Positions 15,224-49,063 of a stretch of DNA of 64,000 nucleotides are shown in pieces. A program made the position numbers and the translations under genes. The notes under the pieces are model-generated. The model saw only the letters and a list, made by a program, of their open reading frames with translations. It was not told where the DNA came from and did not search any database. Origin of the DNA: an uncultured Blastocatellia bacterium (GTDB lineage Bacteria > Acidobacteriota > Blastocatellia > HR10); contig CALHAI010000013.1 of NCBI GenBank assembly GCA_937934295.1, positions 5,865-69,864 of the forward strand. The letters are read 5' to 3'. How positions within the stretch are numbered: the first letter of the stretch is position 1; every line of letters begins with the position of its first letter.

Positions 15224-15359
15224 CTTGCCGAGTCAGTATATCGCACTCTCGAGCGCTTGATCAATGCGCCGCTCTCGCGCCAAAATGACCAACTTGATCT
15301 CGTGAGGCGAAGCTGAAGAGGCGAGCCGTCGCCGGGAGACCAACTCGAGGAGGAGGCCG

Positions 15360-18576: not shown

Positions 18577-18634
18577 CGGGGGCAACTGTAGCCAACGCCG
18601 TCGCTCCCCGTCAACACATCGGCTCCTCCCATGC

Positions 18635-18664
18635 TTGACACTCCGGCCTTGAGTTCGCTATCTT
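18635..18664 (+). promoter_or_regulatory. sigma-70-like promoter candidate for rplM-rpsI (TTGACA-18 nt-TATCTT)
   Basis: TTGACA at 18635-18640, 18-nt spacer, TATCTT at 18659-18664. GGGGGAG RBS about 8 nt before the rplM ATG. Confidence 0.4.
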
Positions 18665-18700
18665 TAACGCTCGCTTTGAAGTCGAGCATCGAGGGGGAGC

Positions 18701-19135
18701 ATGAAGACTTACGTTCCGAGCGGGAAGGATTTGGACGCGCAGCGGAAATGGTACGTCGTGGACGCGGCGGGCATGACTGTTGGCCGATTGGCCTCGCGCG
18801 TGGCGCGGATCCTCATGGGGAAGCATAAGCCGACATATACTCCTTTTCTGGATCTGGGTGATCATGTGATCGTCATCAATGCGGCCAAGGTGCGGTTCAC
18901 GGGGCGGAAGTGGGAGCAGAAGATCTATCGGTATCACACGGGGCATCCCGGCGGATTGAAGGAGATTCCGGCCAAGCGGATGCTGGCCGAGCATCCGGAG
19001 CGGATCGTGGAGTGGGCGATCCTGGGGATGTTGCCCAAGACGAAATTGGGCAGGAAGAAGGCGAAGAGGCTGCGCGTCTATGCCGGGCCGGAGCACCCGC
19101 ATGAGGCGCAGCGACCGGAACCTTTGACCGTGTAA
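18701..19135 (+). CDS. rplM: 50S ribosomal protein L13
   Basis: [49 protein letters not shown]. Confidence 0.9.
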
Positions 19136-19144
19136 GGAGTCGCT

Positions 19145-19540
19145 ATGGCGGAGTTGATCCAATATTGGGGGACGGGACGGCGCAAGACCTCGACGGCGCG
19201 CGTCATCTTGCGTCCGGGGGCGGGGCAGATCACGATCAATGGGCGTCCGCTTGAGGCCTATTTCCCACTCGAGCGGCATCGCGCCGTCATTCGGCAGCCG
19301 CTGTTGTTGGCCGATGCCTTGGGCAAATTCGATATCCGCGTGAACGTGCGAGGCGGGGGGATCACCGGGCAGGCTGAGGCGATCCGACACGGGATCGCGC
19401 GCGCTCTGCTTGAATTCAATTCCGATCTGCGCCCCCGCTTGAAGGAAGCGGGGCTGCTCACCCGCGATGCGCGCATCAAAGAACGCAAGAAATATGGGCA
19501 GAAAGGAGCCCGAAAGCGATTCCAATATTCCAAGCGGTGA
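19145..19540 (+). CDS. rpsI: 30S ribosomal protein S9
   Basis: C-terminal [17 protein letters not shown] and central [19 protein letters not shown]. Confidence 0.9.
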
Positions 19541-19724
19541 GTGTTCGAGAGCGACTCTCCCCGGACATCGTGGGCGATCTCTGGCGAGGTTCGCGCGCAT
19601 GATTCCAGGGGGGCCTCCGTGGGCTTCCCGACCCTGCTTGGCCGTCGTCGCGATGGGAGATCCGCGCGCGACCGAGTGCGGGCGGCCGAGCGCGAAAATC
19701 ATATCGAGGAGGTGAGGGACGGCG

Positions 19725-20531
19725 GTGGTCACGATCACGATGAAGGAGCTGCTCGAAGCGGGTGTCCACTTCGGCCATCAGACGCACCGTTGGAATCCGA
19801 GGATGCGCAAGTTCATCTTCGGCGAACGCAACGGTATCCACATCATCGACCTGCAGCAGACGCAGCGGTATTTCCGCGAAGCCGTGAAGTTCGTGACCGA
19901 GATGGCGGCGCAGGGCAAGACCTTCCTCTTCGTGGGGACGAAGCGACAGGCGCAGGATGCCATCGCCGAAGAAGCCACGCGATGCGGCCAGTTCTATGTC
20001 AACCATCGTTGGCTGGGCGGCTTGCTGACGAATTTCCAGACGATTCGGAAGTCCATTCAAAAGCTCCACGAGCTGGAGCAGATGAAGGCCGATGGGCGGC
20101 TGGAACAGCTTCCCAAGAAGGAGGCGATTCGCCTGGAACGCAAGCGGGCGGCGTTGGAGAAGAACTTCGCCGGCATCCGCAACATGACCAGATTGCCTGA
20201 CGTGCTCTTCGTCATTGATACGGAGAAGGAGGAGCTGGCCGTTCGGGAGGCCAAGCGGATGGGCATCCCTATCGTCGCCGTCGTGGATACGAATTGCGAT
20301 CCGGCGGGGATTGAGTATCCCATTCCGGGCAACGACGACGCGCTGCGCGCCGTGCGTCTCTTCGTCTCCAAGATCGCCGACGCCATCATCGAGGGGCGGC
20401 AAATGTTAAAGGAAGCGGCGCCGGAGGTGGTCGAGGCGGCTGCGACACCATCGGAGGCGGAAGCCTCGCTGACGAGTGACACGGGGCACTTCTTGGAGGA
20501 GATAGAGGAGGAGATTCCCGAGCGGGAGTGA
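19725..20531 (+). CDS. rpsB: 30S ribosomal protein S2 (start GTG 19725 or ATG 19740)
   Basis: [41 protein letters not shown]. Confidence 0.9.
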
Positions 20532-24139: not shown

Positions 24140-25123
24140 ATGATCTACACCTACGCGAACATTCCAGCGCGAATTGCAGCGACGGGCTCGTACTTACCAG
24201 AGCGCGTGATCACGAACTCGGAGATCCTCGGGCTTGAGGAATCGGATGGACAGATTCGGCGACTCCTGGGAGCCGTGGAACGCCGTGCGGTGAGCGAAGA
24301 GGAGGCTTGCTCGGATATCATCGTCAAAGCGGCGCGGCGCATTTTGGAAACGGCCCGCCTCTCGCCTGAAGAATTGGATCGCATCATCGTCAGTGCGACC
24401 CCAGGTGATTACCATGAGCCCTCGACGGCCAGCGTCGTTCAATATAAGCTCGGAGCCTATTGTCCGGCCGTAGACGTGGGCATGTCCTGCGTCGGATGGG
24501 TCGCCGGGGTGGATTACGCCTTGCGCTGCATCGCCACGGGAGAGCGGCGCGTCCTCGTCTTGGCCGGGACGATCGTCTCCCGTGGGAATCCCTTTCGCAA
24601 TCCGATGCATCGGGCGATCTTTGGCGATGGCGCTGGCGGAGTCCTGCTCGAAGCGGCCGATCGCGGATACTTCTTCTCGGGCGGGCTTTGGACCAAGGGA
24701 GAGTACTACGACGTGATCACCATGCCGCATGAAACGTCCCTGCCTTCGTCCCGCATCCCGCCTGAGTATCGGGGGAGTTTCTACATGGGGCGGCGCGAGA
24801 TCATGTTCGAGGCCTTGCGCAATAACTTGGGGGCGTGCATCGAGGGGGCGTTGCACGCGGCCGGGATCTCGCGCGAGGAGATTGACGTGGCCTTCATCCA
24901 TCAACCGAGCAAGCCGCTCTTTGAGGAAGCGGCGCGAGTGGCCGGCATTCCGCGCGAGCGCATCATCCAGGATTACGAGCGCTACGGGAATACGATCTCG
25001 GCGGAACTCCCCATCTCGCTCGATGAGAACGTGCGTCGCGGTCGCGTGAAGCGAGGGGATAAGATCCTGATGGTGACCTTTGGCGCGGGATTCAATGCGG
25101 GCATTTTGGTCTTCGAGTATTGA
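24140..25123 (+). CDS. 3-oxoacyl-ACP synthase III (FabH-like KAS III)
   Basis: Thiolase-fold KAS III. Cys in VDVGMSCVGWVAG, His in AFIHQPSK, Asn in YGNTISAELP. 327 aa. Confidence 0.75.
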   Translation: MIYTYANIPARIAATGSYLPERVITNSEILGLEESDGQIRRLLGAVERRAVSEEEACSDIIVKAARRILETARLSPEELDRIIVSATPGDYHEPSTASVVQYKLGAYCPAVDVGMSCVGWVAGVDYALRCIATGERRVLVLAGTIVSRGNPFRNPMHRAIFGDGAGGVLLEAADRGYFFSGGLWTKGEYYDVITMPHETSLPSSRIPPEYRGSFYMGRREIMFEALRNNLGACIEGALHAAGISREEIDVAFIHQPSKPLFEEAARVAGIPRERIIQDYERYGNTISAELPISLDENVRRGRVKRGDKILMVTFGAGFNAGILVFEY

Positions 25124-25252
25124 AGCCTCTGCGACATTGATCCCTCTGTCTGGACATCGGTCGGCTCCACTGATGGCCGATGACCATGCGACAGCGTGCA
25201 TGCGCCGGTCACATAGCGGGAGATGTTGCGCGAGCGATCTTCGAGGAACAGC

Positions 25253-26551
25253 ATGAAGGGACGGATCCTCTTCGCCCCGGCTTCGACGGTCCTCGCTCAT
25301 GCCGGACGCTGTCTGATGATCGCGCGCGAGCTGGACCGGCGCGGCCATCATGTCCTTTTGGCAGGTGCCGCTCGATTCCTTCGGGAGTGGACGCTTCAGG
25401 ACCCGCGCCTCAGCTATGTCGAGCTGCCGGACGTTCCGGCCGGCGAAGGGCTTCGCATCCTGCGGTCGCTCTGGAAAAGGCCCGATGAGCGATGGCTCCA
25501 CGCGCATGTGCGCGCGGAGCTGGAGTTGCTCGATCGTGCGCGACCTGATTTGGTCGTCGTGGATTTTCGGTTGACGATGTTCATCTCGGCAAGGGTGCGA
25601 AGAATCCCCATTGTTTCCCTTCTTGGGGGACGATGGCTTTATCCCTATGCCGCAAGACCCTATCGGGCATTCCGGACGGCGCCAGCCTTTTGGGTTCGGC
25701 GTCTACTGCGAGAGCACATCAGCGACGTGGTGATCCCCTGGGGCTTCCGCTGGCTCCTGCGTTATAAGATTCGACCCTATCGGCGCTTGCTCGCGCACTA
25801 CGGCTTGGAGCCGAAGCGTGACCTGTGGGAGCTTTTTCTGGGCGATCTGAACCTGGTTTTGGACAGCGAGCTTCTGGCGCCGACGCATCCGTTGCCGGAG
25901 AATTTCGTGCGCGTCGGCCCTGTGCATTGGGAACCGTCATTGCCGGAACCGGAATGGCTGGCAGAGTGGACGAGCCGACGCCCGGTCATCTACGTGACGC
26001 TCGGCAGCACGGGACATCCTCGGTTATTTCGACGAGTGCTCGATGTCCTCGGCCGCACGCCGTATCGCGTCATCTTGACGACGGGGGGGCAGATCAGCTT
26101 CGCACCGGAGGAGATCCCGGAGAATGTGCGCGTCGAGGCATTTCTGCCTGGACGCCTGGTGATGGAGCGCTCAGATCTGGTGATCTGCCATGGTGGAGCC
26201 GGGACCATCTATCAAGCCATCGCCGCGGGGACACCCTGCCTGATTGTCGCCACGCATTTCGAGCAGGAGTTGCTCGGACAAGAGGTCGAGGAGCAAGGAG
26301 CGGGACGGATGCTCGCTCTTCCTGAGATCTTGGCAGACCCGATGCGGCTCAGTCGGACCCTGGAAGAAATGCTCGAGCATCGGGAAGCGTACGCGCAGAA
26401 CATACGGAGATTGCAGCGCGCCCATCGCGCTCTCGATGGGGTGAAGGCGGCGGCGGCGGCGATCGAGACGTTTTTGAGCGATCGGCTTGGGAATCGCGAA
26501 CCCGTCAGCACATCCGCTCGACTTGTTCTTGAAGCAGGAGGAGGGCCGTGA
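25253..26551 (+). CDS. GT1-family (MGT/UDP-glycosyltransferase-like, GT-B) glycosyltransferase
   Basis: N-terminal RILFAPASTVLAHAGRCLMIARELDRRGHHVLLAG and C-terminal VICHGGAGTIYQAIAAGTPCLIV...EQELLGQEVEEQGAG match macrolide/MGT-type GT1. Confidence 0.7.
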   Translation: MKGRILFAPASTVLAHAGRCLMIARELDRRGHHVLLAGAARFLREWTLQDPRLSYVELPDVPAGEGLRILRSLWKRPDERWLHAHVRAELELLDRARPDLVVVDFRLTMFISARVRRIPIVSLLGGRWLYPYAARPYRAFRTAPAFWVRRLLREHISDVVIPWGFRWLLRYKIRPYRRLLAHYGLEPKRDLWELFLGDLNLVLDSELLAPTHPLPENFVRVGPVHWEPSLPEPEWLAEWTSRRPVIYVTLGSTGHPRLFRRVLDVLGRTPYRVILTTGGQISFAPEEIPENVRVEAFLPGRLVMERSDLVICHGGAGTIYQAIAAGTPCLIVATHFEQELLGQEVEEQGAGRMLALPEILADPMRLSRTLEEMLEHREAYAQNIRRLQRAHRALDGVKAAAAAIETFLSDRLGNREPVSTSARLVLEAGGGP

Positions 26552-27816
26552 TGGAGCTGCTCTTGTGGGGGATCGCCGCGTTCTGGCTCGCGCTCCTTAC
26601 GATCGGGACGGTTCTGTGGCGGTATCGGCCTTCTCTCTGGCCAGCGGAGCCGATGGAGCGAGGTCTGGCAGAGGTGGCTTTCGAGTGGCCTTTAGTCTCA
26701 GTCCTGGTCCCGGCACGGAATGAGGAGCATCGAGTCTTGCGCGAGGCCATCGGGGCGCTCCTGCGGCAAGACTATCCTCGGTTGGAGATCATTGTCGTCA
26801 ACGATCGTTCGATCGATCGCACATTGGCAATCCTGAAGGAGATGGCGCAACGAGACTCCCGATTGCGCGTCATTGATGGGGAAGAGCCGCCTCCCGGATG
26901 GCGAGGGAAGCCGTTTGCGCTTCAGCAAGCGTTGGCTGAAGCCAGAGGGGAATGGATCCTGGCCGTAGATGCCGATGTCATCGCCCATCCGGCTGCCGTG
27001 CGGACGGTGCTGGCGCTGGCGCGCGAGCGCGCCCTGGATGCCTTATCCCTGCTGCCGAAATTCGAGTACGTGAGCTTCTGGGATCGCGTCATCGAACCTC
27101 AAGCGCTGAACCTCTTGCGCTTGGGCATGCTTATCGCCGCATGGCGGGAGAAGAGGCGTGGAGCTCGCTCGCCTGAAGGAGCGCGGCGACGGTGTTCGTC
27201 TCATCCCCTGGCACTCCTGTCGGCTTATGTGGGTGATCCGGCGTTCACCATCGGCGCGTTCACGCTCGTGCGACGGGAGGCTCTGGAGGACATTGGCGGA
27301 TACGCCGCGATTCGAGGAGAAGTGCTCGATGAGACGATCCTTGGCATGCGGTTGAAGCAGCTCGGGTATCGCGTCTTCGCCATGGAAGGCGCTCCCCTGG
27401 TGCGCACGTCGGCGCGCGTGACGCTGGCGGAGATCTGGGAAGCCTACAGCCGTTCGATCTGTTCGGCTGTCGGGCGGAGGTGGCTCGTCGCGCTCATCGG
27501 AGGCGGCGTGATCGTGCTGCTTGCTGTTTTCCCACCGCTGGTGCTCATTGGGGCTCTCATGGAGATTGTGAGGGTGGGGAGCCCTTCGGTGTCCGAAGCG
27601 ATCCCGGCGGCCATCGCTTACGTGGCGATGAGCAGTCTGAGTTTCCGATTGAGCGCAGCCGATCGCCCGACCCTTCTCTCGGCCAGTCTCGCCTTCCTCG
27701 GCTATGCGATCTTCGCGGCCATCGCCTTTGCCGTGCCGTGGCGTCTCTGGTCCGGCGTGGGCGTCATGTGGCGCGGACGATGCGTCTACGGGGTAGGGGA
27801 AGATGTATCGGGGTGA
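26551..27816 (+). CDS. membrane-embedded family-2 glycosyltransferase
   Basis: LVSVLVPARNEE...IIVVNDRSIDRT...AVDADV (DxD) form the GT2 core, flanked by N- and C-terminal TM helices. tgATG overlap with the upstream stop. Confidence 0.7.
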   Translation: MELLLWGIAAFWLALLTIGTVLWRYRPSLWPAEPMERGLAEVAFEWPLVSVLVPARNEEHRVLREAIGALLRQDYPRLEIIVVNDRSIDRTLAILKEMAQRDSRLRVIDGEEPPPGWRGKPFALQQALAEARGEWILAVDADVIAHPAAVRTVLALARERALDALSLLPKFEYVSFWDRVIEPQALNLLRLGMLIAAWREKRRGARSPEGARRRCSSHPLALLSAYVGDPAFTIGAFTLVRREALEDIGGYAAIRGEVLDETILGMRLKQLGYRVFAMEGAPLVRTSARVTLAEIWEAYSRSICSAVGRRWLVALIGGGVIVLLAVFPPLVLIGALMEIVRVGSPSVSEAIPAAIAYVAMSSLSFRLSAADRPTLLSASLAFLGYAIFAAIAFAVPWRLWSGVGVMWRGRCVYGVGEDVSG

Positions 27817-28414
27817 GGAGACGACGACCAGTTGGGCGTACTTCGAGTACCTCCTGGGAGTGGGGTATCCGCGATGGCTCGTGCGCTTGGTCTTCGCCGT
27901 GTTGGAGCGGTCGTTTCGGCCTCACCTCCGGGAATTTCACGGGCGCGTGTTGGATGTCGGATGTGGCATCGGGCATTTCTTCCGCGTCTACCCGGATGCC
28001 TTCGGCGTGGATCACAACTTCTACTGTGTGCGATATTGCGTCGAGCGGGGATATCGGTGCGTGCAGGGCGATCTTTACCGCCTCCCCTTTCCGGCGGGGT
28101 CATTCGATGGCGTCCTGCTCTGCCACGTCTTGGAACATCTGGAGGCTCCGGAAGCGGCGCTGGAAGAAGTCCATCGCGTTCTCCGGCCAGGTGGCGTGCT
28201 GAGCATTCGCGTGCCGACGGTGACCGGGTTCAAGGTGGATCGCACGCATAAGACCTTCTTCGATTATCCGCGTCTGGCGCGCGCGCTCGCGCCGTGCGGA
28301 TTCTCCATCGTGGCCAAGCGCTACTATCCGATCCCGTGGCGTTGGCTCGGTGAGTTGATCGTGTACAACGAGCTGCGTGTTCTGGCCGTCAAGCGAGACG
28401 TGATAGAGTCCTGA
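27803..28414 (+). CDS. class I SAM-dependent methyltransferase
   Basis: VLDVGCGIGHF (motif I) ... VLLCHVLEHL ... LRPGGVL. Confidence 0.7.
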   Translation: MYRGEETTTSWAYFEYLLGVGYPRWLVRLVFAVLERSFRPHLREFHGRVLDVGCGIGHFFRVYPDAFGVDHNFYCVRYCVERGYRCVQGDLYRLPFPAGSFDGVLLCHVLEHLEAPEAALEEVHRVLRPGGVLSIRVPTVTGFKVDRTHKTFFDYPRLARALAPCGFSIVAKRYYPIPWRWLGELIVYNELRVLAVKRDVIES

Positions 28415-28425: not shown

Positions 28426-29328
28426 ATGGTCCGACGCTTCATCGTCGAACATGCGGCGTGGCATCTGCTCGCGCGGGCTTGGAGCATCACCCGCGCTGTC
28501 GTCGGAGCGCTTCCGGAGGGCCGGCTCATCCTTCTGGACGCGCGCGTGCGGCCGATCCCCCGATACGGCTATGGGAAGCCGCCGCATGCCACGCTCTATG
28601 AGTTGTTGGACCGGAATCGGCGGGCATATCGAGAATTCCTGGAGCGTTTCTTGGACTTTCGGGAGGACCTCTGGCGTATTCCCACGTTCACGTTCGATCC
28701 TCAAAGGCCCTGTTGGCGAGGGGGGAACCTTTGGATTCCGGCTTTAGATGCCGTGAGCCTCTACGGTTGGCTTCGTCTGTTGTCGCCGCGCCGATACGTC
28801 GAGATCGGCTCCGGCTATTCGACGCGCTTCGCGCGTCAGGCCATTCGAGACGGGGGGCTGACGACGCAGCTCATCGCCATCGATCCACGCCCGCGGGTCG
28901 CCGTGGGCGCGCTCTGCGACGTCGTCCTCCGCGAGCGCCTCGAAGCGCTAGACCTTCGGCTCTTTGACGAACTAGAAGCTGGCGACATCCTCTTCATTGA
29001 CGGTTCGCACCGATGCTTCATGAATTCGGACGTGACGGTCGTCTTCCTCGAGATCTTGCCGCGCTTACGGCAAGGAGTGCTCGTGCAATTCCACGATATC
29101 TTTCTGCCTTACGATTATCCCCCCCATTGGGGGAAGCGGTATTATTCGGAGCAGTATCTGCTGGCCGTACGGCTACTGGCGCGCGAACCAGGCTTTGAGG
29201 TCCTTCTTCCCAATGCCTTCATCAGCCGGGATCCGGAGCTGTCGCACGTCCTGGATCCGCTTTGGGAACATCCGGGAATGCAGGGGGTGAACCGAAATGG
29301 AGCCTCGTTGTGGATTCGAATCGCTTGA
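28426..29328 (+). CDS. methyltransferase-fold protein (Methyltransf_24/CmcI-TylF-like), function unclear
   Basis: YVEIGSGYSTRFARQAI...ILFIDGSH is a Rossmann MT-like motif. Weak recall-based call. Confidence 0.4.
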   Translation: MVRRFIVEHAAWHLLARAWSITRAVVGALPEGRLILLDARVRPIPRYGYGKPPHATLYELLDRNRRAYREFLERFLDFREDLWRIPTFTFDPQRPCWRGGNLWIPALDAVSLYGWLRLLSPRRYVEIGSGYSTRFARQAIRDGGLTTQLIAIDPRPRVAVGALCDVVLRERLEALDLRLFDELEAGDILFIDGSHRCFMNSDVTVVFLEILPRLRQGVLVQFHDIFLPYDYPPHWGKRYYSEQYLLAVRLLAREPGFEVLLPNAFISRDPELSHVLDPLWEHPGMQGVNRNGASLWIRIA

Positions 29329-30217
29329 GCGCGCGCCGACGGCGAGCCTCTCGACGAACGTTCGCTCCCAGAGAGAGGTTGATGTCGAGCCCATCCGGAC
29401 GCTGAAGGCGCCGCTTCTCATCCTCGGCATGCACCGTTCGGGGACATCGGTGCTGACACATCTCTTGAGCGAGCTTGGCCTGATCACCGGATGGCGTCTC
29501 AATAATGAGGAATCGGCTTTTTTCCACCGCTTGAACCTCTATATCGAGCGGAAGACAGGCGGACGTTGGGACGATCCGGAACCGATCGCGCGAGCGGTCG
29601 AGGATCCCGCCCTCATGTCGCGCCTCTTGTGGCACCTGCGGCGAGAGGCCCTCAGCCCGAAGGTTGTCCTCTATTTCGGGCTGCGGCTCTTCAGACGCTA
29701 CAAGACGCTGGAGCGCATAGATCGACCTTGGGGCTGGAAGGATCCACGGAACACGTTCACCTTCGACATTTGGCGGCATTTATTCCCCGAGGCGCGTATC
29801 CTCCACATTTATCGTCATGGGGTAGACGTCGCGGCGAGTCTTCGAGCGCGGGAGTTGAATTCGCGCGTTCACGCCTTATCCCGCTATGCCTCGGCACGCT
29901 GTCGTACGCTCTCCGGGGCCTTCCGGTTATGGCGCCTCTATGTGGAGAAGGCGTTCTCCCTTTGCCCGAGTGGAGGACAAAAGGCCATCTTCCACGTGCG
30001 GTATGAAGATTTGCTCAGTGATCCAGAGCCGACCTTGAAACGACTTCTCGAATTTTGTGGGCTTCAGCCCACTTCGAGTGATCTCCGCAGGCTCCTGAAG
30101 AGCGTAGATGCCGGGCGAGCCTTCGCCTTTCGCCGGGATCCGGAATTGCGGGCCTTTTACGAGCGTGTGAAGGATGATCCGTGGATGCGCTCCTTGGGAT
30201 ACGCTGACGTGGAGTGA
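29297..30217 (+). CDS. sulfotransferase family protein (PAPS-binding 5'-PSB loop)
   Basis: PLLILGMHRSGTSVLTHLL is a P-loop-like 5'-PSB motif typical of sulfotransferases. Confidence 0.6.
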   Translation: MEPRCGFESLERAPTASLSTNVRSQREVDVEPIRTLKAPLLILGMHRSGTSVLTHLLSELGLITGWRLNNEESAFFHRLNLYIERKTGGRWDDPEPIARAVEDPALMSRLLWHLRREALSPKVVLYFGLRLFRRYKTLERIDRPWGWKDPRNTFTFDIWRHLFPEARILHIYRHGVDVAASLRARELNSRVHALSRYASARCRTLSGAFRLWRLYVEKAFSLCPSGGQKAIFHVRYEDLLSDPEPTLKRLLEFCGLQPTSSDLRRLLKSVDAGRAFAFRRDPELRAFYERVKDDPWMRSLGYADVE

Positions 30218-30220
30218 GTG

Positions 30221-31141
30221 ATGGGGATTCGGGGCACGATCGTCGCCTCCATGTATAACGCTCGGCCCGATGTGCTGGAGGTGATCGAGCGACTTTTCTT
30301 TCCGAGCCTGATCCGCAATGCGTCCCCACAGTTGCAGTTCATTCTGCTCGATGATGCGTCTCCACTTCGGGAGGAGACCGAGCGCCTGGTCGCGCGATTC
30401 GCTTCGGATTTGCGCCGGGCGTTCGGCGACTTTCAATTCCTGCGAAATCCTCGCAATTTGGGATTCGCCGGCAGTTACAATCGCGGGATGCGCCGAGCCG
30501 AGGGGGAACACGTGATCCTCATCAATGACGATGTCTATCTTCCCCAAGGGTCGTTGGAAAGTCTGCTGGACATTTTGCACAGCGAGGTGGGCGTTGGACT
30601 TGTCGGCCCGGTGACCAATTGGGTGTGCGGGTATCAGAACACGCGCCTTTTCCCCCGCTTGAAGGATTTCTCGCCCTCGGAGCTGGAGCGCATCGAGGCA
30701 TTCGCCCGCGAGTTGCGGCGGCGCGTCGGGCGCCGCGTGATTCCCGTCACTCGGCTCATCGGGTTCTGTCTCGCCATCTCGGGCGATCTTATTCGCGAGA
30801 TTGGGTATTTGGATGAGTCCTTCACGCATGGCCTCTACGAAGATGACGATTATTGTCTGCGGGCGCGTAAGGTCGGGTACCGGGTGCTTGTGGACGTTGC
30901 GACGTTTGTCGAGCACGGAGGGCCGCGGGGTGGGGGGATGTCGTTTCGGCAAAGTTTCCTGAAGACGCTCGTGGCGGCGTTCACCAACGGGGTACGTCTG
31001 GCGAGGAAACACGATCTCCCCCTCTCGGCCATCGCGCGACAGAGCCTGGAGGGCTTTTTGCAGTTCTTCCTGGATCGCCATACCGTCACTGCGTATCTGA
31101 AGCCCTATCTGACCGATGGAGTGGAAGGACGCCATGCCTGA
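30221..31141 (+). CDS. family-2 glycosyltransferase (soluble)
   Basis: ILLDDASP...ILINDDVYLP (DxD)...EDDDYCLRA. GGAG RBS 7 nt before the ATG at 30221. Confidence 0.7.
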   Translation: MGIRGTIVASMYNARPDVLEVIERLFFPSLIRNASPQLQFILLDDASPLREETERLVARFASDLRRAFGDFQFLRNPRNLGFAGSYNRGMRRAEGEHVILINDDVYLPQGSLESLLDILHSEVGVGLVGPVTNWVCGYQNTRLFPRLKDFSPSELERIEAFARELRRRVGRRVIPVTRLIGFCLAISGDLIREIGYLDESFTHGLYEDDDYCLRARKVGYRVLVDVATFVEHGGPRGGGMSFRQSFLKTLVAAFTNGVRLARKHDLPLSAIARQSLEGFLQFFLDRHTVTAYLKPYLTDGVEGRHA

Positions 31142-31979
31142 GCGCGATGTCCTCCTGACGGGGATCCCGCGATCCGGGACGACGCTCGCGTGTTGGTTGC
31201 TCAACCACCTCCCCAACGCCGTCGCGCTGGTGGAACCGCCAATGGGCGTCCGATTTTGGCTCGGCCGCTGGGATCGAAGGCAAGCGAGCGCGAGCGTTCG
31301 CCAATTCTTCATGAGGGTCCGCAAGCGCATCGCTGCGCGGCGCCCGGTTCCATCTTTCCACATTGATGGAGAGGTTCCGGCCAATACCGTGGAGGAGCGG
31401 CGCATGGGGGTATCGCGCCGACGGTTGGCTCGGCCTGGGAAGGTTCTCATGGCGAAACGCCTTTCCGCGCACTTCTGGCTCATCGTGAAGCATCCGGCTC
31501 CTTTCACCGCGCTCTTGAGTGAGCTCACGGGCCATTTCTCCATCTACGCCCTTGTTCGCAATCCTCTGGCCGTCCTCGCCTCGTGGAACTCCGTCCCCTT
31601 GCCGGTGAATAGAGGGCATGTGCCCGCGGCCGAATGGTTCGATCCCTCCCTCCGGAAAACGCTCTCCCGGATCGCGGATCGATGGGAGCGGCAGCTCGCT
31701 CTTCTCGAGTGGTTTTTCGAGATCTATCGGCGCACCCTTCCCAAGACGGCGATCCTTCGCTACGAAGACATCGTCGCCTCAGGCGGGCGCGCGCTCAGCG
31801 TGATCGTCCCGGAGGCCGCCGAGCTCAACGTCCCTTTGCCGAACCGGAATACGAGTCCGCTCTACGATGTCTCGCTCATGTGCGCTCTGGGCGAGCGATT
31901 GCTCAAGACCGATGGGTCGTATTGGGATTTCTACTCGCGGGAGAGTGTGGAACGAGTGATCGCTGAAGTGAGGGGGTGA
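31134..31979 (+). CDS. sulfotransferase family protein (second copy)
   Basis: VLLTGIPRSGTTLACWLL 5'-PSB motif. ATGCCTGA start/stop overlap with the upstream GT2. Confidence 0.6.
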   Translation: MPERDVLLTGIPRSGTTLACWLLNHLPNAVALVEPPMGVRFWLGRWDRRQASASVRQFFMRVRKRIAARRPVPSFHIDGEVPANTVEERRMGVSRRRLARPGKVLMAKRLSAHFWLIVKHPAPFTALLSELTGHFSIYALVRNPLAVLASWNSVPLPVNRGHVPAAEWFDPSLRKTLSRIADRWERQLALLEWFFEIYRRTLPKTAILRYEDIVASGGRALSVIVPEAAELNVPLPNRNTSPLYDVSLMCALGERLLKTDGSYWDFYSRESVERVIAEVRG

Positions 31980-33001
31980 TGCGCCTGGCCGTCGTGGTGC
32001 GTTCGGTGGATGCGCCGAGTCATCGGGTCTATCGGGAGAACGTGGTCCGGGCCCTTGCGGCTTCGGGGATCCATGGGATTCCGATCCGGAGACACGGGCC
32101 GATCCCTCCCGAGTGTGACGTGGTGTGGGATCCTGGACTGGGAATGCGCCCGATTCCCCCGATCTTGCGGGAGAGCCGCGTTCCTGTCGTCGTGACGTTC
32201 CACGGCGCGCGCATCTTCTCGCCCGCTTATGTTCGGAAGGCGGAATGGGTGGTCGCCCGCTTCTACCATTCATGGTTGAAGTCCCGAATTCTGCGGGATC
32301 GAATATGGTTCCGAGAGGTCGTGACGGCGGTGATCGCGCCCTCGCAGTTCGCCGCTCAGGAAGCTGCGGAAGTTTTCAATGTCCCGCTTGAGGGAGTTCA
32401 TGTCATCCCGCACGGCGTTGATCACGCGCTGTTCAGGCCCGACGGAGCGAGGTTCATGCGGGAGCGCCCGTATCTGCTTCATATCTTCGGGGGGAATCCG
32501 ATGAAGAACACCGAGCGGGTTGTTGCGGCGTATGCCCGGCTGCCGGAATCGTCCCGCCCCGATCTCATCGTGATCTCACCCTGGGACTGGCGCATTCTCG
32601 GAAAATTTCGGGTTCGGGGAGTGAAGGTCATCCGACGGCTTGTTCCCCAACCCGAGCTCGCCAAGTGGTATCGAGGAGCCCTCGCGCTGGTCGCGCCTTC
32701 GCTGCGAGAGACGTTCGGGCTCTCGCTCCTGGAGGCCATGTCCTGCGGATGCCCGGTGATCACCTCCAATCGCACGGGCTGTGCGGAAATAGTGGGTGAC
32801 GCCGCCCTGCTTGTGGACCCATGTTCGACTGAGGAGATCGCCGAGGCAATGTGGCGGTTGAGTGCGGACGGTTCCCTGCGGCGGTACTTGCGGGAACAGA
32901 GCCTGAGGCGCGCGCAGGCATTCAGTTGGAGTCGTTCGGCGGCCGAGCATGCGTGGGTCTTTCAGAGCCTCCTGGCCGGAGCCTCCCTCAGATCGGCATG
33001 A
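31979..33001 (+). CDS. GT4-family (GT-B, retaining) glycosyltransferase
   Basis: E(x)7E region FGLSLLEAMSCGCPVITSN and preceding Rossmann halves. tgATG overlap with the upstream stop. Confidence 0.7.
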   Translation: MRLAVVVRSVDAPSHRVYRENVVRALAASGIHGIPIRRHGPIPPECDVVWDPGLGMRPIPPILRESRVPVVVTFHGARIFSPAYVRKAEWVVARFYHSWLKSRILRDRIWFREVVTAVIAPSQFAAQEAAEVFNVPLEGVHVIPHGVDHALFRPDGARFMRERPYLLHIFGGNPMKNTERVVAAYARLPESSRPDLIVISPWDWRILGKFRVRGVKVIRRLVPQPELAKWYRGALALVAPSLRETFGLSLLEAMSCGCPVITSNRTGCAEIVGDAALLVDPCSTEEIAEAMWRLSADGSLRRYLREQSLRRAQAFSWSRSAAEHAWVFQSLLAGASLRSA

Positions 33002-34242: not shown

Positions 34243-35433
34243 TCAATATACGCTGATCTCCCCCTCGATCAGCCGGCGCCAGAGGGAAGGCAGCTCATCG
34301 AGCTTCGCCATCGCCAGTTGGGAAGCGCGACCGCGCAAGCCGCGTGTGAGCCGCCGCGCGCGCAGCTTCAGGTTCACGACCTGAGGCTGCGTGATCGGCC
34401 GGCCGATTTGGCTGAGGATATAGCAGTACGCTTCCTCGACCTCCTCGATCTCTTCGAGGACCTGTTCGGCAATGCGTCGGGCCGTGATGTTGTAGAGCTT
34501 CCCCACGTGGCTGATGGGATTTTTCCCGGCCGTCGCTTCCAGGCTCATCGGGCGAAAGGGCGTGATCAGCCCGTTGACCCGATTCCCACGCCCGACTTGC
34601 CCATCGTCGCCCGCTTCGGCGCTCGTCCCCGTGAGCGTGAGATAGACCGAGCCCTTCGCCTCATCATCGGCGGGATTGACATGCACGGTGACCGGATGCT
34701 CCACAAGCTGTTCGGCGAAGTGCGCGATCTCGCTCTGAATCGCCTGCTTCTTCTCCTGATAATCCGAGAGATCGCGAACATGAGCGGAGACGAAGGCGAT
34801 GGCGACTGTGAGCGCGATATCCTCGCCTCGCCGCATCCCCATCACCTTAATATCCTCCCCGATCTCCGGATAGGTGGCCTTGAGCGGCTCTGAGTTCAGA
34901 AATCGTTCTGTCTCGTAAACCACTCGTTCGAGGCGAGTCAGCGGGGCATAGCCGACGCCGAACGATGTGTCGTTGGCAAGCGGCGTCGTCGTGGCACGTT
35001 GAAAGAGATCCACGAGGTCGGCGCTTCCCGGTCGGATCACGCACTGGAAACGCATGTGCCGCTCGGGATCGAGATGCCGAAAATGCCCCGCGATCCACGC
35101 CGCTGCGGCTTCGCGGTACAATTCCTCGATTGGGACGCGCCGGTTCGCGACGTCGAGCGTCGCGCGCCCGACGAGCATGAAGAGGATAGGATCGAGCATC
35201 TCCCCCCCACCGAAGTGCGAGATCGTGCGCCCGCCGACGAGCAAGGCCTTGTCGAGATTGTAATGGAGGACGCGCCCGAACTCTCTCTCATAGTAGCGGC
35301 AAAGGGCGACGCTCGTGGCCTCGGCGATCCCGTCGCACATTGTATCCGGGTGCCCGACCCCTTTCCGCTCGACGATCTCAACTTCCAGCGCTTCGACTTT
35401 CGGAAAATTCAGATGGTCCACGACGATCATCAT
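34243..35433 (-). CDS. archaeal-type S-adenosylmethionine synthetase (MAT, PF01941-like)
   Basis: [50 protein letters not shown] closely matches the archaeal MAT N-terminus (ERKGxGHPDxxCDGIAE) and not bacterial MetK (GHPDKxCDQISD). AGGGGGG RBS before the ATG at 35433. Confidence 0.7.
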
Positions 35434-35619
35434 CCGCCCCCCTGCTTCGGCGCTCGTTAAACTGTATACCACGCTGAGGGTTTTCGTCCAGGTGGTCTTC
35501 ACAGCTCTTCAGGAGGAGGCGCTCTTGACTCTGCACGATGCGCGTGATAGAAGGTAGCACCTTACTGTCAAGGCGAGGGAGTTGCTGGAAGTTTGACATC
35601 TCTTTACGGAGGTTGGGCG

Positions 35620-37263
35620 ATGCATGTGCTGCGCTGGTTCATCGGCATCCTCGTCTTCGCCGCCTTCGTCGCTGCCTTCTCCGGCGGACCGCGTCCTGGA
35701 TTCACGGGCGCTCCGGGAGAACCGACGTGCACGTCCTGCCATTGGGGATTCCGGGTGAATCCCGATGATCGGGGGAGAGTGCGACTTGAGGGACTGCCCA
35801 TCGGCTATATTCCCGCCGAGCGATATCTCCTGAAATTATTGGTGACCCATCCTGATCCGGATCGTCAGCGATGGGGATTTCAACTGACGGCGCTCACCAA
35901 CCCAGGGGATGATCCGGTTGGAGAGTTCCTCGTCGTCGAAGGGGATCTGGGATGGGCCGATCCAATGCGGACACGGCGGGAGATCGGCGGACCCGGAGGT
36001 CGGCGACAGTACATGTCCCATACCTCGGGAAGCACTCTGGTTTTCCCGAAGTCTGGAGGCGATCATTGGCGGATCGCCTGGAAGGCACCGATGTCGGGCG
36101 TCGGAGGCGTGACGTTTTACGCCGCCGGGAATGCCGCCAATGGAGATAGGGCGCCGACTGGAGACAAGATCTTCACAGCCTCATTCACGATCCCTGGAGC
36201 GCTTCGTTTCTCTCAGGAGGAGGCTTTCGCCATGCCTTTCGCTCGCTGGATCCGGGCGCTCGCGTGGGGCGATTTCGATGGGGATGATTTCCCCGATCTC
36301 TTCCTCATTGGAGAGGGGGAGTATTTTCTCTTCCGAAATGACCGCGGGAAGCTCGTGGACGTGACCGAAGCCTCTGGGATCCCGCGTTTCGGCAGGGGGC
36401 GCGCCGCTGCGTGGGGGGATTTCAACGGCGATGGGCACCTGGATCTCTATGTCGTCAATGAGGGGCAAGATTTCCTGCTCCGCAATGAAGGAGGGACATT
36501 TCGCGAAGTCGCCGCCGCTTCGGGAATCGTCGAGCACGCTTCCGGCCGCGCTGCCGTATGGGGCGATTTCAATGGCGATGGGCATTTGGATCTCTACGTC
36601 GTCAATGACGGGCAGGATGTCCTCTACCGGAACAGGGGCGATGGAACGTTCGCCGCGCTCGATCCAACTTCAGCCGGTCTCACGGAAGATGCGAAGGGGC
36701 GCGCGGCCGCATGGGGAGATTTCGACAAAGACGGACGCTTAGATCTTTACGTGGCGAATGAAGGGCCAGACTTCCTCTATCGCAATCTTGGTGGCGGAAG
36801 GTTTCAAAACATCGCGCCCTCAGCCGGAATCCTTCAGGAAGGGATCAGCACGGACGTTGCTTGGTTCGATTTCGATGGAGACGGCCGCTTGGACGTCTTC
36901 GTGGTTCGGGAGGGGCAAGATGTCCTATATCGGAATCGAGGCGATGGGACGTTCACTGTCGTTGACCCGGAGGTCGCCGGATATGCGGATGAGGGAAGCG
37001 ATGGGGTGCTCGCCGTCGCCGATTTCGATGGAGATGGGCGCCCTGACGTTTTCGTCGCGAAGGCCGGAATTGTTTTCCTCTTCCGCAATCGGGGTGATGG
37101 GACGTTCGGTCAGATCGTGGGGAAGCCCGGATTCGCGATAGTGCCCGTGTCTCTCCCTCGTGGGGCGGCATGGATTGATTTCGATCGCGATGGGCGGATG
37201 GACCTTTTCCTCGCCGGTGATGATGGAACACATGCGCTCTATCGTGGGCAGGTCGGCGGATGA
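35620..37263 (+). CDS. secreted ASPIC/UnbV-type FG-GAP repeat beta-propeller protein with an N-terminal CxxCH motif
   Basis: Signal peptide MHVLRWFIGILVFAAFVAAFS. CTSCH at the mature N-terminus. At least 8 repeats of AAAWGDFNGDGHLDLYVVNEGQDFLLRN type. Confidence 0.6.
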   Translation: MHVLRWFIGILVFAAFVAAFSGGPRPGFTGAPGEPTCTSCHWGFRVNPDDRGRVRLEGLPIGYIPAERYLLKLLVTHPDPDRQRWGFQLTALTNPGDDPVGEFLVVEGDLGWADPMRTRREIGGPGGRRQYMSHTSGSTLVFPKSGGDHWRIAWKAPMSGVGGVTFYAAGNAANGDRAPTGDKIFTASFTIPGALRFSQEEAFAMPFARWIRALAWGDFDGDDFPDLFLIGEGEYFLFRNDRGKLVDVTEASGIPRFGRGRAAAWGDFNGDGHLDLYVVNEGQDFLLRNEGGTFREVAAASGIVEHASGRAAVWGDFNGDGHLDLYVVNDGQDVLYRNRGDGTFAALDPTSAGLTEDAKGRAAAWGDFDKDGRLDLYVANEGPDFLYRNLGGGRFQNIAPSAGILQEGISTDVAWFDFDGDGRLDVFVVREGQDVLYRNRGDGTFTVVDPEVAGYADEGSDGVLAVADFDGDGRPDVFVAKAGIVFLFRNRGDGTFGQIVGKPGFAIVPVSLPRGAAWIDFDRDGRMDLFLAGDDGTHALYRGQVGG

Positions 37264-38659: not shown

Positions 38660-39135
38660 AAGACCTCACCCACGTGGACGCCGAAGGGCGAATTCAAATG
38701 GTGGACGTGAGCGCTAAGCCTGTGACCGAACGGCGGGCTGTAGCGAGCGGCTTCGTGCGCCTGCGCAAGGAGACGCTGCGGGCCATCCGAGAGCGGCGGA
38801 CGCCGAAGGGCGATCCGCTGGAGGCAGCTCGATTAGCGGGGATTCTCGCGGCCAAGCGGACGGCGGAGTTGATCCCCCTTTGTCATCCGCTTCCGCTCAC
38901 GCACATCGATGTCGAAGCTGAGGTGAAAGCGGACGGCATCGCCCTTACGGCCTCGGTGGCGACGACGGCACAAACGGGCGTGGAGATGGAAGCGCTTGTG
39001 GCTGTGAGCATCGCCGCGCTCACACTCTACGATATGTGCAAGGCCATAGATCGAGAGATGACGATCACGGATATTCGTTTGGAGCAAAAGACTGGGGGGA
39101 CGTCGGGGGATTTCGTGCGAGAGGAGGACGGGTGA
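38656..39135 (+). CDS. moaC: cyclic pyranopterin monophosphate synthase accessory protein MoaC
   Basis: [27 protein letters not shown]...[38 protein letters not shown] at 38656 overlaps the moeA TGA (GTGA). Confidence 0.85.
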
Positions 39136-39197
39136 GTCGGTCTCTCATTCGAGAGCCGAAGCGTGATCTTCCGCGAGATCGCTTTGGGGCGGAGAAG

Positions 39198-40853
39198 ATG
39201 AAGCGAGCTCTTTTGAAAGATGCGAGCGCTCTTGTCCGAAGGGTTGCCGTGCTCGCCGTGTCGAGTCAGATGCTCTTTGTATGGGGCATCGGCGCGGGAT
39301 GGGGGCAACAGACGACGCCGCCGACGATCGATCTCGGCACGCCGGGTGCCGTTCACGTCACCCTCAACGGCGCGTCGAGTGGCGATCGCTTGGAGATCCT
39401 TCGCGTGGCCGATGTCAATGGCGATGGCGTGGACGACGTCGTGGTCGCCGGGCGATTGGCCAACGGGCCGGAGGGGTTTCGTTTCGATGCCGGCGGCGTG
39501 TTCATCGTGTTGGGAGGGGTGGACTTGATTCGCGGGACGATGCGGGATCTGCATGATCGCCCTGACATCATCATCCATGGGGCGGATGCGAATGACCGCT
39601 TGGGCACGTCGCTCGCCGTCGGCGACGTCAATGGGGATGGTATTGCGGATATCATTGTGGGCGCTCCGGGAGCCGATGGACCCGGAGAGCTGCGATCGGG
39701 CGCCGGAGAGATTTACGTTGTCTTCGGCGGTCCGCATTTGGCGCGCGGAACCATACGTGACATGGCGGGCTTGGTCGCCCCCGGGGCCGACGTGGTGATC
39801 TTCGGGCCGGAACCCACAGCTTCACTGGGCGCCTCACTCGCCGTCGGCGATGTCAATGGGGATGGCGTCGCGGACATTCTCGCGGGAGCGGCGACGTCGT
39901 CTCAGCCGCGAGGTGACCGCCTCTTTGCCGGGGCGCTCTACGTGATCTTCGGTGCGCGCGAGTGGATGAGTGGTCTGGCGCGCGACCTGGCCGATCCGGC
40001 GAGCGCGGACGTGACGATCTTTGGCCCTAGCTCTCTCAGCTTCTTCGGATTTCAGATCGCCGTTGGGGATGTGAACGGGGATGGCGTGCCTGATATTGTG
40101 ACGAGCGCGCCGCTGGCCGATGGTCCGCAGAACGAGCGATCAGAAGCGGGAGAGGTCTACGTGATCTTCGGGGGGGTTCACTTGGTTCGGGGAACTGTGC
40201 GCGATGTCGCACCGGGATCGGCTGCCGGATCCGATGTCGTGATCTTCGGCGCGGCGGCTCAGGATCTGCTCGGATATACGCTGCTTCTGGCCGATGTGAC
40301 CGGAGATGGCGTCCTCGATCTCATCGTCGGCGCACTCCAGGCGGATGGGCCGGAACGAAAGCGACCGGATGCGGGCGAAGTGTATATCTTCTTCGGGGGG
40401 GTAACGTTCGCCTCCTCGGCCACGCGCGATGTCGCGGGGCTTGTGGCGCCGGCGCCGGATGTGGTGCTCTATGGGGCTGAACCCTTCGATGAGTTCGGAG
40501 CGGCACTCGCCGCCGCGGACCTGGATGGGAATGGCGTTGCGGATCTCGTGGTCGGCGCTCCTGGGGGGGATGCCAAGGAGAATCAGAAGATTGACGCCGG
40601 CGAGGTCTATGTCTTCTTCGATCGGAGCATAGCTCAAAGTGGCACGGTGCGCGATGCCGGAAACCCGGACTTCATCCTCTTCGGCGCGAATAACGGAGAG
40701 CGCACGGGGAGTTGCATCGCCTTCGGCGATGTCAATGGAGATGACGTTCTCGATCTCTTGGTGAGCGCTCCAGAAGGAGGCGGCGTTCGCCTGAGCGCTG
40801 GATCGGTGTACATCGTCTTCGGCCCCCTTGTGCCCCTTGGGGGAGGAGGATGA
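39198..40853 (+). CDS. secreted integrin-alpha-like FG-GAP repeat protein (about 9 repeats)
   Basis: Repeated GDVNGDG(V/I)(A/D)D..VGAPGADGP....AGE(I/V)YV(I/V)FGG units. GGAGAAG RBS before the ATG at 39198. Signal peptide. Confidence 0.65.
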   Translation: MKRALLKDASALVRRVAVLAVSSQMLFVWGIGAGWGQQTTPPTIDLGTPGAVHVTLNGASSGDRLEILRVADVNGDGVDDVVVAGRLANGPEGFRFDAGGVFIVLGGVDLIRGTMRDLHDRPDIIIHGADANDRLGTSLAVGDVNGDGIADIIVGAPGADGPGELRSGAGEIYVVFGGPHLARGTIRDMAGLVAPGADVVIFGPEPTASLGASLAVGDVNGDGVADILAGAATSSQPRGDRLFAGALYVIFGAREWMSGLARDLADPASADVTIFGPSSLSFFGFQIAVGDVNGDGVPDIVTSAPLADGPQNERSEAGEVYVIFGGVHLVRGTVRDVAPGSAAGSDVVIFGAAAQDLLGYTLLLADVTGDGVLDLIVGALQADGPERKRPDAGEVYIFFGGVTFASSATRDVAGLVAPAPDVVLYGAEPFDEFGAALAAADLDGNGVADLVVGAPGGDAKENQKIDAGEVYVFFDRSIAQSGTVRDAGNPDFILFGANNGERTGSCIAFGDVNGDDVLDLLVSAPEGGGVRLSAGSVYIVFGPLVPLGGGG

Positions 40854-40894
40854 GCGCACGCGGCGCCCGCAGATTCCCACCGAGGAGGAGCCAT

Positions 40895-44379: not shown

Positions 44380-44613
44380 GATGGGCTCCTCCTTACGCGG
44401 GACATTTTATGATGCAGTGCGAGGATGCGTCAATCCTTCGGAGCGCGTGAAGCGTCGGCGCCATCAGGGGACCGAAAGCTTCCTCCTTCCCGGCCTTCAG
44501 ATCGTCTACCAATCCCCTCTCTTCAATGAGCATCACAGCGAGGGAAGTCTATTTGCGAGAGAGGCGTGAGGCAAGGTGCGGCACACCTTTCATCCGTCGT
44601 GAAGAGCTGGCGT

Positions 44614-46026: not shown

Positions 46027-46199
46027 CGTTCCCCTCTCCTCATCCGAGGATTCTCCCATCTTGGGATCACAGGCATGGGGTAGCAAATCTCATGCCATCT
46101 CCCATGCCGCGCCAAACGCCCATGCGCTCAATCGGTTCTTCGTTGACCGGGGGAAGTCCGATTACACCTGGCGCGGCAAATGCCTCAACCGGTGCGCGA

Positions 46200-46225
46200 A
46201 ATCGCTTCGCGAGCGTGAAGCGATT
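46200..46225. promoter_or_regulatory. inverted repeat AATCGCTTC-N8-GAAGCGATT in a divergent control region
   Basis: 9-bp perfect arms, extendable to 12 bp with one G/T mismatch. Lies between the divergent oxidoreductase and cytochrome operons. Confidence 0.3.
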
Positions 46226-46270
46226 CGGGCAAGCGGCGGCCTCTTTCTTCGGCATGAGGCGAACCTTGGA

Positions 46271-46284
46271 GGGGGAATTCCCCC
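46271..46284. promoter_or_regulatory. 14-bp perfect palindrome GGGGGAATTCCCCC
   Basis: Exact palindrome in the same 410-bp divergent intergenic region. Followed by the half-site-like GGGAGAATTCAC. Confidence 0.3.
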
Positions 46285-46496
46285 AAGGGTGGGAGAATTC
46301 ACGTAGCGCGGCGAAGGCTCGCCCGGCTCTCCCCCTCATGCGACTAAGCTTGCACCAGGCATGGGCTTAAATCCGAAAGGCTGTGGCACGCTTGACCCCT
46401 TCAGGGCGATGCGGTACGGAATTTGCTTGACTCCGAGGCGGAGTTCGCGAAAGCTTGACGTCGGAGAGGGCGTAGGTCGTCAAGCGCGAGGGAGAG

Positions 46497-47671: not shown

Positions 47672-47753
47672 GTCGTTCCTTCAGAGGCTTCATATTGGGG
47701 AGGATGCAGCGTGAGCCCCGTCACGCATGCGTTCCCCTTTGAGGAGGGAGACT

Positions 47754-48539: not shown

Positions 48540-48566
48540 GGCGCTGGGGAGGAAGGGAGGCACCAT

Positions 48567-49004: not shown

Positions 49005-49063
49005 TCTCGCCAGCGTGACTGGAGGATCCACCCCTCGTGCTCAAGGGGGAGAGAGCTGACGTT

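Follow-up and report, generated by a model that had tools for sequence, protein, structure and literature searches.

Two putative sulfotransferases of different subfamilies in a candidate glycoconjugate operon of an uncultured Blastocatellia bacterium

In a 64-kb stretch of DNA from an uncultured Blastocatellia bacterium (contig CALHAI010000013.1, positions 5,865 to 69,864; hereafter the window), a family-2 glycosyltransferase gene (GT2b) lies between two genes, here named ST1 and ST2, whose products resemble sulfotransferases. The locus raises the question of whether both proteins belong to the sulfotransferases and whether they would act on one and the same glycan, which a preliminary description of this DNA had regarded as unusual. 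Both open reading frames (ORFs) given in that description are present, at 29297-30217 and 31134-31979, and each encodes a G-x-(H/P)-RSGT(S/T) 5'-phosphosulfate-binding (PSB) loop. With a probability of roughly 0.6, the operon around them directs the synthesis of an oligoglycoside that is carried by a lipid or small aglycone, O-methylated, and sulfated at two positions by ST1 and ST2. The features of the pair are as follows.

29297-30217, plus strand: ST1, a 3'-phosphoadenosine 5'-phosphosulfate (PAPS)-type sulfotransferase of 306 residues (aa), matching PF13469, with PSB loop G44-S51, E72, K148 and R173-x7-S181
29426-29449, plus strand: ST1 5'-PSB loop GMHRSGTS, aa 44-51, from a motif scan; strand-loop-helix (E40-43/H47-59) in the model
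29813-29839, plus strand: ST1 3'-phosphate-binding (3'-PB) motif R173-HGVDVAA-S181; strand E167-172 and helix H175-188 in the model
31134-31979, plus strand: ST2, a divergent sulfotransferase-fold protein of 281 aa, with PSB loop G10-T17, E34, K119 and R142-x7-S150
31161-31184, plus strand: ST2 5'-PSB loop GIPRSGTT, aa 10-17, from a motif scan; strand-loop-helix (E5-10/H16-23) in the model
31557-31583, plus strand: ST2 3'-PB motif R142-NPLAVLA-S150; strand E136-141 and helix H144-151 in the model
31134-31141, plus strand: start/stop overlap ATGCCTGA of GT2b and ST2, 8 nt, read in the sequence

The strict motif G.[HPQLK]RSGT[ST] occurs twice in the six-frame translation of the window, compared with 0.045 occurrences expected per triplet shuffle. 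The start/stop coupling of ST2 to the family-2 glycosyltransferase, pointed out earlier, was confirmed by the overlap ATGCCTGA at 31134-31141, and the same 8-nt overlap is also called in a relative (L001). An alternative ATG upstream, at 31116, is chosen for ST2 by automatic gene callers; 31134 is the better start, because the homologues begin with MPERD or MSERD and because an AAGGA Shine-Dalgarno-like stretch precedes it. On the minus strand, an antisense ORF of 538 aa (29927-31543) covers ST1, GT2b and ST2. It was rejected as a gene and is considered an artefact of the GC-rich sequence (61% G+C), since homologues, Pfam domains and low ratios of nonsynonymous to synonymous substitution (dN/dS) support the genes on the plus strand.

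ST1 is a clear member of the Sulfotransfer_3 family (PF13469, E 2.9e-25, 90.2 bits, cut-off 27), and Sulfotransfer_1 was matched too. A family profile built from 33 homologues matches, among PDB entries, TPST1/2, the mycobacterial Stf1 and Stf9, CurM and olefin-synthase sulfotransferase domains, as well as cytosolic SULTs, StaL and Teg14. The AlphaFold2 (AF2) model has a mean predicted local distance difference test score (pLDDT) of 90.8, with residues 1-24 disordered, and all of its top 50 Foldseek matches are sulfotransferases, led by TPST2/1 (E ~1e-7, template modelling score (TM) 0.45-0.59). R173, G175, D177, V178 and S181 are invariant among the 33 homologues, and this 3'-PB motif aligns to the TPST 3'-PB stretch IRDGRAVVHS. 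R47, E72 and K148 are also invariant in the family and are the counterparts of R13, E34 and K119 in ST2. The ST1 family is very large and generic, with 3,096 matches in one search.

The placement of ST2 requires more indirect evidence. PDB searches with ST2, alone or as a family profile, aligned only the N-terminal PSB loop of the TPSTs, and since the matches are confined to this loop such searches are unable to classify the protein. Among 40 diverse ST2 homologues, 34 matched PF13469 at E<=0.01 (best 8.9e-8) and 13 matched PF00685; a kinase-like family was seen for one, as a marginal AAA_18 match at E 0.0075. Comparison of the ST2 and ST1 family profiles by hhalign gave E 1.9e-5 and a probability of 77% over 215 columns at 22% identity, and this alignment places the PSB loop, the K(D/H)P lysine, the R-x7-S motif and the RYED stretch of one family opposite those of the other. 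The AF2 model of ST2 (pLDDT 95.3, predicted TM-score 0.92) retrieved sulfotransferases as its best 16 Foldseek matches, with TPST2/1 in the lead. R142, P144 and S150 are invariant in the 40 homologues, which come from many phyla, and R13, E34 and K119 are invariant in the alignment of the same family. The catalytic residues of human TPST2 are R78, E99 and K158 (PMC10951654); the R13-E34 spacing of +21 in ST2 equals that of R78 and E99 in the human enzyme. Judged from profiles and the predicted model, ST2 thus belongs to the sulfotransferase fold, and the models of both proteins conform to its alpha/beta architecture.

The checks suggested in the preliminary description agree with this placement. 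Structure prediction led to TPST1/2 as the first Foldseek match of either model, and the 3'-PB search found R-x7-S in both proteins, invariant in each family and located at a strand-to-helix junction of the predicted models. P-loop kinases or other families, which that description had named as the outcome speaking against its assignment, were matched by neither protein in profile searches; the Pfam search of ST1 and ST2 returned no kinase family for either. The Walker A pattern GxxxxGK[ST] is absent from both loops, HRSGTS in ST1 and PRSGTT in ST2, neither of which has a Lys before the Thr/Ser.

The divergence noted earlier between the two proteins beyond the loop was borne out, the best pairwise BLASTP match (E 0.056) being not significant. 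They had also been called paralogous, which holds at the level of the superfamily (hhalign E 1.9e-5) and fails for recent paralogs, given the 22% identity and the separate distribution of the two families. By their sequences, ST1 and ST2 are remote superfamily relatives only. The earlier proposal of two different acceptor positions fits their membership in different subfamilies.

The two genes are part of a compact operon on the plus strand, whose remaining members are listed below.

24140-25123, plus strand: FabH-like ketoacyl synthase (KAS) III, conserved in synteny with the operon but of uncertain membership (PF08541, PF08545; canonical FabH structures at E 1e-42)
25223-26551, plus strand: GT1, glycosyltransferase of the MGT/UDPGT family (PF04101, PF06722)
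26548-27816, plus strand: GT2a, membrane family-2 glycosyltransferase (PF00535, E 5.4e-24) with hydrophobic N- and C-terminal segments
27803-28414, plus strand: MT11, class I S-adenosylmethionine (SAM) methyltransferase (Methyltransf_11; PF08241, E 8.7e-21)
28426-29328, plus strand: MT24, Methyltransf_24 methyltransferase (PF13578, E 2e-13), with its last 32 nt shared with the start of ST1
30218-31141, plus strand: GT2b, soluble family-2 glycosyltransferase between ST1 and ST2 (PF00535, E 6.4e-15), abutting the ST1 stop at 30217/30218
31976-33001, plus strand: GT4 glycosyltransferase (PF00534, E 2.6e-22), with a 4-nt overlap (GTGA) between the ST2 stop and its own start

The overlapping or abutting junctions of the operon measure 4, 14, 32, 0, 8 and 4 nt, and the block is flanked by a ClpB-like AAA gene and ychF. 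No promoter or terminator signal above chance was detected when 23.5-34.4 kb was scanned. The FabH-like gene looks housekeeping, because it is 93-96% identical across relatives where the other genes are mostly 55-90% identical, and it may therefore be a neighbour of the pathway and not a member of it. The nearest solved relatives of GT1 are the natural-product glycosyltransferases CalG2, EspG2, YjiC and OleD, and those of GT4 are MshA and sucrose-phosphate synthase. The closest models for GT2a are HpnB, CruG and HpnI, and PgaC, NodC and CelA are matched weakly.

PAPS is made in the cytoplasm. The sequences of ST1 and ST2 are without signal peptides or membrane segments, so both enzymes should act there. 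They are predicted to be PAPS-dependent O-sulfotransferases of different subfamilies, each with an Arg-type 5'-PSB loop and a TPST-like catalytic set, in which the Arg would stabilise the leaving phosphosulfate, the Glu shortly after strand beta-2 would serve as the base, and the Lys and the R-x7-S helix would hold PAPS. They would be co-translated with four glycosyltransferases and two SAM methyltransferases in the order GT1, GT2a, methyltransferase, methyltransferase, ST1, GT2b, ST2 and GT4. Sugar addition and sulfation may alternate, as suggested by this gene order and by the coupling, with ST1 abutting GT2b, GT2b overlapping ST2 and ST2 overlapping GT4. The two methyltransferases would lead to an O-methylated product that is doubly sulfated, and triply sulfated in some relatives. 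A short oligoglycoside is favoured over a polymer because of the relatives of GT1 and GT4, the membrane-bound, HpnB/CruG/HpnI-like GT2a, and the absence of flippase, polymerase, exporter and priming genes from the operon and from the window ORFs scanned. We infer the use of PAPS, the acceptor, a substrate molecule shared by both enzymes, and a glycolipid or small glycoside as the product in place of a polymer.

The operon is syntenic in eight relatives (L001, L005, L006, L007, L008, L087, L088 and L089), across which the identity of GT2a ranges from 61% to about 100%; L086 holds the first three operon genes, after which its contig ends. Among the syntenic contigs, the better-annotated ones carry the label Acidobacteriota; Blastocatellia is the label of one close ST2 homologue. 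All nine genes have dN/dS values of about 0.1-0.25, with ST2 at about 0.25, a sign of purifying selection, and therefore both sulfotransferases are real and constrained.

The sulfotransferase content of these relatives varies. In L001, where the other genes are orthologous, the sulfotransferase before GT2b (L001:8252-9082) is 28% identical to ST1 over 124 residues. L088 (3877-7757) and L089 (12694-16410) carry three sulfotransferases, ST1, ST3 and ST2, in the order MT24-ST1-ST3-GT2b-ST2-GT4. ST3 has a GVARSGTS loop and matches PF13469 with 97 bits, and the L001 protein shares 79% identity with ST3 of L088. Three versions of the operon are thus found, with ST1+ST3+ST2 (L088, L089), ST1+ST2 (window) and ST3+ST2 (L001); ST2 is the constant member and ST1 and ST3 are variable. 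A non-orthologous swap had been considered for the L001 protein and was dropped, as differential loss fits better with ST1 and ST3 lying side by side in L088 and L089. Besides the sulfotransferases, L008 is without MT24 (the site falls between 6094 and 6116), so that strains differ in methylation too. Of the genes retained in L001, GT2b has diverged most (65% identity), which hints that GT2b and the sulfotransferase upstream of it are functionally linked. The presence and absence of sulfotransferases looks like variable tailoring of one scaffold, where ST2 would perform the constant sulfation step and ST1, together with ST3 in relatives, would give variable extra sulfates.

Outside this group, the ST2 family is a discrete one: 1.84 billion proteins contain about 1,249 representatives of it at the 50% identity level, 921 of them with E<=1e-10. 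Its neighbourhoods were surveyed in 86 loci, made up of five earlier ones, the window and 80 fetched genome loci, the latter from Acidobacteriota, Brocadia/Planctomycetota, Cyanobacteria, Verrucomicrobiota, Chloroflexota, Bacteroidota, Thiothrix, Luteimonas, Puniceibacterium, Rubrobacter and Solirubrobacterales. Cultured strains with ST2-family genes are among the carriers, namely Thiothrix eikelboomii ATCC 49788, Luteimonas marina FR1330 and Puniceibacterium antarcticum SM1211. The clusters of neighbouring ORFs were inspected by hand, because single-linkage clustering merged unrelated families via read-through and antisense ORFs. A further sulfotransferase-like ORF lies within 8 kb of the ST2 homologue in 63 of the 86 loci, and two or more do so in 27. 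Many of these neighbours are Lys-type (GAQKxGT[TS]) proteins of about 250-270 aa that directly abut ST2, and example proteins were confirmed by Pfam as Sulfotransfer_1/3. In addition, ST2 domains are fused to glycosyltransferases, as GT2+ST2 (P0244), GT4+ST2 (P0301, P0326) and GT4+ST2+sulfotransferase (P0309), or to another sulfotransferase (P0259, P0313, P0343). At the level of the family, these associations suggest that ST2-type enzymes act with glycosyltransferases and a second sulfotransferase on one glycan. Clusters with several sulfotransferases for glycans are common among ST2-family loci, and the view that dual sulfation would be unusual is not borne out, considering the 63 loci, the sulfotransferase-ST2 fusions, the relatives with three sulfotransferases and the precedent of the synechan xss cluster.

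The survey brought further observations on ST2 loci. Orthology of the sulfotransferase and GT4 partners beside the distant ST2 homologues of L002-L004, and of the glycosyltransferase domains of P0244 and P0326, to ST1, GT2b and GT4 was rejected, as they share the broad family only. Lys-type (GAQKxGT) Sulfotransfer_1 genes abut ST2 for instance at L032:996-3836, L012:8887-9696, L002:8854-9639 and L062:4656-6034, while Bacteroidota loci add Sulfotransfer_2 genes, which stand in tandem in Saprospiraceae. Several ST2 loci in other phyla contain pairs of ABC-2 permease and ATPase genes. These Lys-type, ABC-2 and Sulfotransfer_2 loci of other phyla look like loci for multi-sulfated polysaccharides. 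Thiothrix/Thiolinea-type loci (L034, L041, L046, L048, L057 and L071) encode a 254-aa ST1-like protein with a ILILGMHRSGTS loop and no Pfam hit, which forms a pair with a GT2 of 300 aa at a distance of a few kb from the ST2 homologue (e.g., L057:11536-13193), an arrangement that echoes ST1-GT2b. P0289 carries an ST2-family domain in a 2,170-aa protein with AMP-binding, PP-binding, thioesterase, TPR and glycosyltransferase domains.

Other features were noted elsewhere in the window. Downstream of the operon and ychF, an archaeal-type SAM synthetase gene (PF01941, called on the near-identical contig L005) is located at 34243-35502 on the minus strand, and the distant ST2 locus L002 likewise adjoins genes for SAM synthetase and S-adenosylhomocysteine hydrolase. 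Large FG-GAP/VCBS- and NHL-repeat proteins follow at 35593-37263 and roughly 39036-43036 (by the L005 calls), with MoeA and MoaC interleaved. The region 43060-51410 encodes multihaem c-type cytochromes (43060-44379, 46497-47153 and 50145-51410) and a cytochrome b (49037-50137). On the other side of the operon, a NodU/CmcH-type carbamoyltransferase gene (16870-18585, minus strand) lies between two large minus-strand ORFs without Pfam match (15261-16808 and 18611-19738).

Several findings weigh against a doubly sulfated oligoglycoside as the product. ST2 scores 23.4 bits on PF13469, below the Pfam gathering cut-off of 27, and its Foldseek matches are weak (E 6e-4, TM 0.31-0.44), with uridine-cytidine kinases appearing from rank 17. 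The similarity of GT2a to HpnB (TIGR03469, 150.6 bits, cut-off 379) and CruG (114.6 bits, cut-off 600) is far under the cut-offs. The operon has no evident gene for synthesis of the aglycone, considering that the FabH-like gene looks housekeeping, and no cysC, cysDN or cysQ for PAPS synthesis was found among the window ORFs scanned. Finally, ST2-family genes in other phyla often stand with ABC-2 exporters, that is, in a polysaccharide context, and export genes for the window operon could therefore lie elsewhere in the genome.

The last point leads to the best surviving alternative, in which the operon decorates a sulfated polysaccharide (exopolysaccharide, capsule or lipopolysaccharide O-chain) and either the genes for polymerisation and export are placed elsewhere or GT2a itself is the synthase. 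The ABC-2 permease/ATPase pairs occur beside ST2-family genes together with many glycosyltransferases, the known sulfated bacterial glycans are mostly polysaccharides, such as synechan (PMC8205485) and the Cobetia capsule (PMC11766843), and the weak matches of GT2a to PgaC, NodC and CelA would agree with a synthase. Nevertheless, no Wzx flippase, Wzy polymerase, polysaccharide co-polymerase (PCP), ABC exporter or priming phosphoglycosyltransferase was found among the nine operon genes and 30 other ORFs scanned in the window, GT1 and GT4 look like glycosyltransferases for small molecules, and by eye, the only way it was looked for, no QxxRW-type processivity motif was seen in GT2a. A polysaccharide product is held to be a serious but rather less likely alternative.

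It is quite improbable that only ST1 works and that ST2 is non-catalytic or another P-loop-like protein, be it a kinase, a nucleotide-binding scaffold or a partner of the glycosyltransferases that binds PAPS or 3'-phosphoadenosine 5'-phosphate (PAP). The sub-threshold Pfam score, the restriction of PDB sequence matches to the N-terminal loop, and low TM-scores with nucleoside kinases among the matches speak for such a protein. Nevertheless, the PRSGTT loop lacks the Walker A pattern, relatives of ST2 match PF13469 in 34 of 40 cases and a kinase-like family in one, the top 16 structural matches are sulfotransferases, and dN/dS is about 0.25. Moreover, the invariance of R142-x7-S150, E34 and K119 across the 40 homologues argues for conserved catalysis by ST2. 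Sulfation of tyrosine on a peptide or protein by one or both enzymes, in the manner of TPST or RaxST and not of glycan sulfotransferases, is highly improbable: TPST1/2 are the best structural and profile matches of both and ST2 shares the Arg-to-Glu spacing of TPST, whereas the likeness is concentrated in the PAPS-binding elements, both genes have glycosyltransferase genes as translationally coupled neighbours, proteins elsewhere combine an ST2 domain with GT2 or GT4, and the operon contains no gene for a precursor peptide or a peptidase-exporter.

Beyond the doubly sulfated oligoglycoside proposed for the window, a broader and more tentative possibility is that ST2 represents an uncharacterised glycan-sulfotransferase family of many phyla that scores under the Pfam threshold and is tied, through adjacent genes and fused domains, to a second sulfotransferase and to glycosyltransferases. 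In this Acidobacteriota clade, it would be the invariable centre of an operon that, by its changing set of sulfotransferases, writes a strain-variable "sulfation code" onto a methylated glycolipid. ST2 marks a widespread, uncharacterised family that is recurrently paired with other sulfotransferases, and the family could be used as a recognisable marker. Clusters with several sulfotransferases for glycans are suggested to be widespread in Acidobacteriota, Planctomycetota/Brocadia, Verrucomicrobiota, Chloroflexota, Bacteroidota, Thiothrix, Luteimonas and Actinomycetota. Enzymes of the ST1 and ST2 types, possibly from thermophiles, are candidates for regiospecific enzymatic sulfation, and heterologous expression of the compact operon of eight to nine genes could lead to a new sulfated, methylated glycoside.

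To our knowledge, sulfated glycoconjugates are well documented only in rhizobia, mycobacteria, cyanobacteria and some marine Gammaproteobacteria. A literature search on sulfated glycoconjugates or sulfotransferase clusters in Acidobacteria found none that was relevant. The nearest solved structures are TPST1 and TPST2, which have in common with ST1 and ST2 the PRSGTT loop, the Arg/Glu/Lys set and the R-x7-S motif, ST2 also keeping the 21-residue spacing; yet identity is 14-21% and TM is 0.3-0.6, and the context in the window is glycosylation and not peptides. For ST1, the mycobacterial Stf1 (2zq5) and Stf9 (2z6v) rank among the best PDB entries by both sequence and fold. Sulfolipid-1 (SL-1), made by the Stf0 pathway, offers an earlier example of cytoplasmic assembly of a sulfated glycolipid on a small sugar (PMC11625862), whereas the window operon is without genes of the Pks2, PapA and Mmpl types. 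Comparison with Stf0 itself gave no match, as PF09037 was unmatched by ST1 and ST2 at E<=0.01 and 1TEX was absent from the PDB matches.

Another likeness is found in the Nod factors. NodH, the Nod-factor sulfotransferase, belongs to PF13469 and is of the Arg-loop type (PMC11625862). In these lipo-oligosaccharides, tailoring by sulfotransferases with Arg-type PSB loops (NodH, NoeE) and by methyl- and carbamoyltransferases varies between strains, similar to the presence and absence of ST1 and ST3. However, the window operon is without a NodABC-type core, and a comparison with NoeE gave no family match (NF052394, 19.4 bits for ST1 and 21.7 for ST2, cut-off 500, covering the PSB loop only).

Sulfotransferases are also found in the gene clusters of sulfated capsules, in Cobetia (PMC11766843) and in Vibrio. 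In terms of gene content, the window operon can be likened to the synechan xss cluster of Synechocystis PCC 6803, where two sulfotransferases of distinct subfamilies, XssA and XssE, stand among many glycosyltransferases (PMC8205485), just as ST1 and ST2 of distinct subfamilies share one cluster with glycosyltransferases. In the xss cluster, flippase, polymerase, co-polymerase and regulators are part of a Wzx/Wzy-dependent exopolysaccharide system, whereas the window operon is without these and has a natural-product-type GT1, GT4 and two methyltransferases. Predicted sulfotransferases in a glycoconjugate operon are, in this respect, an already known type of system.

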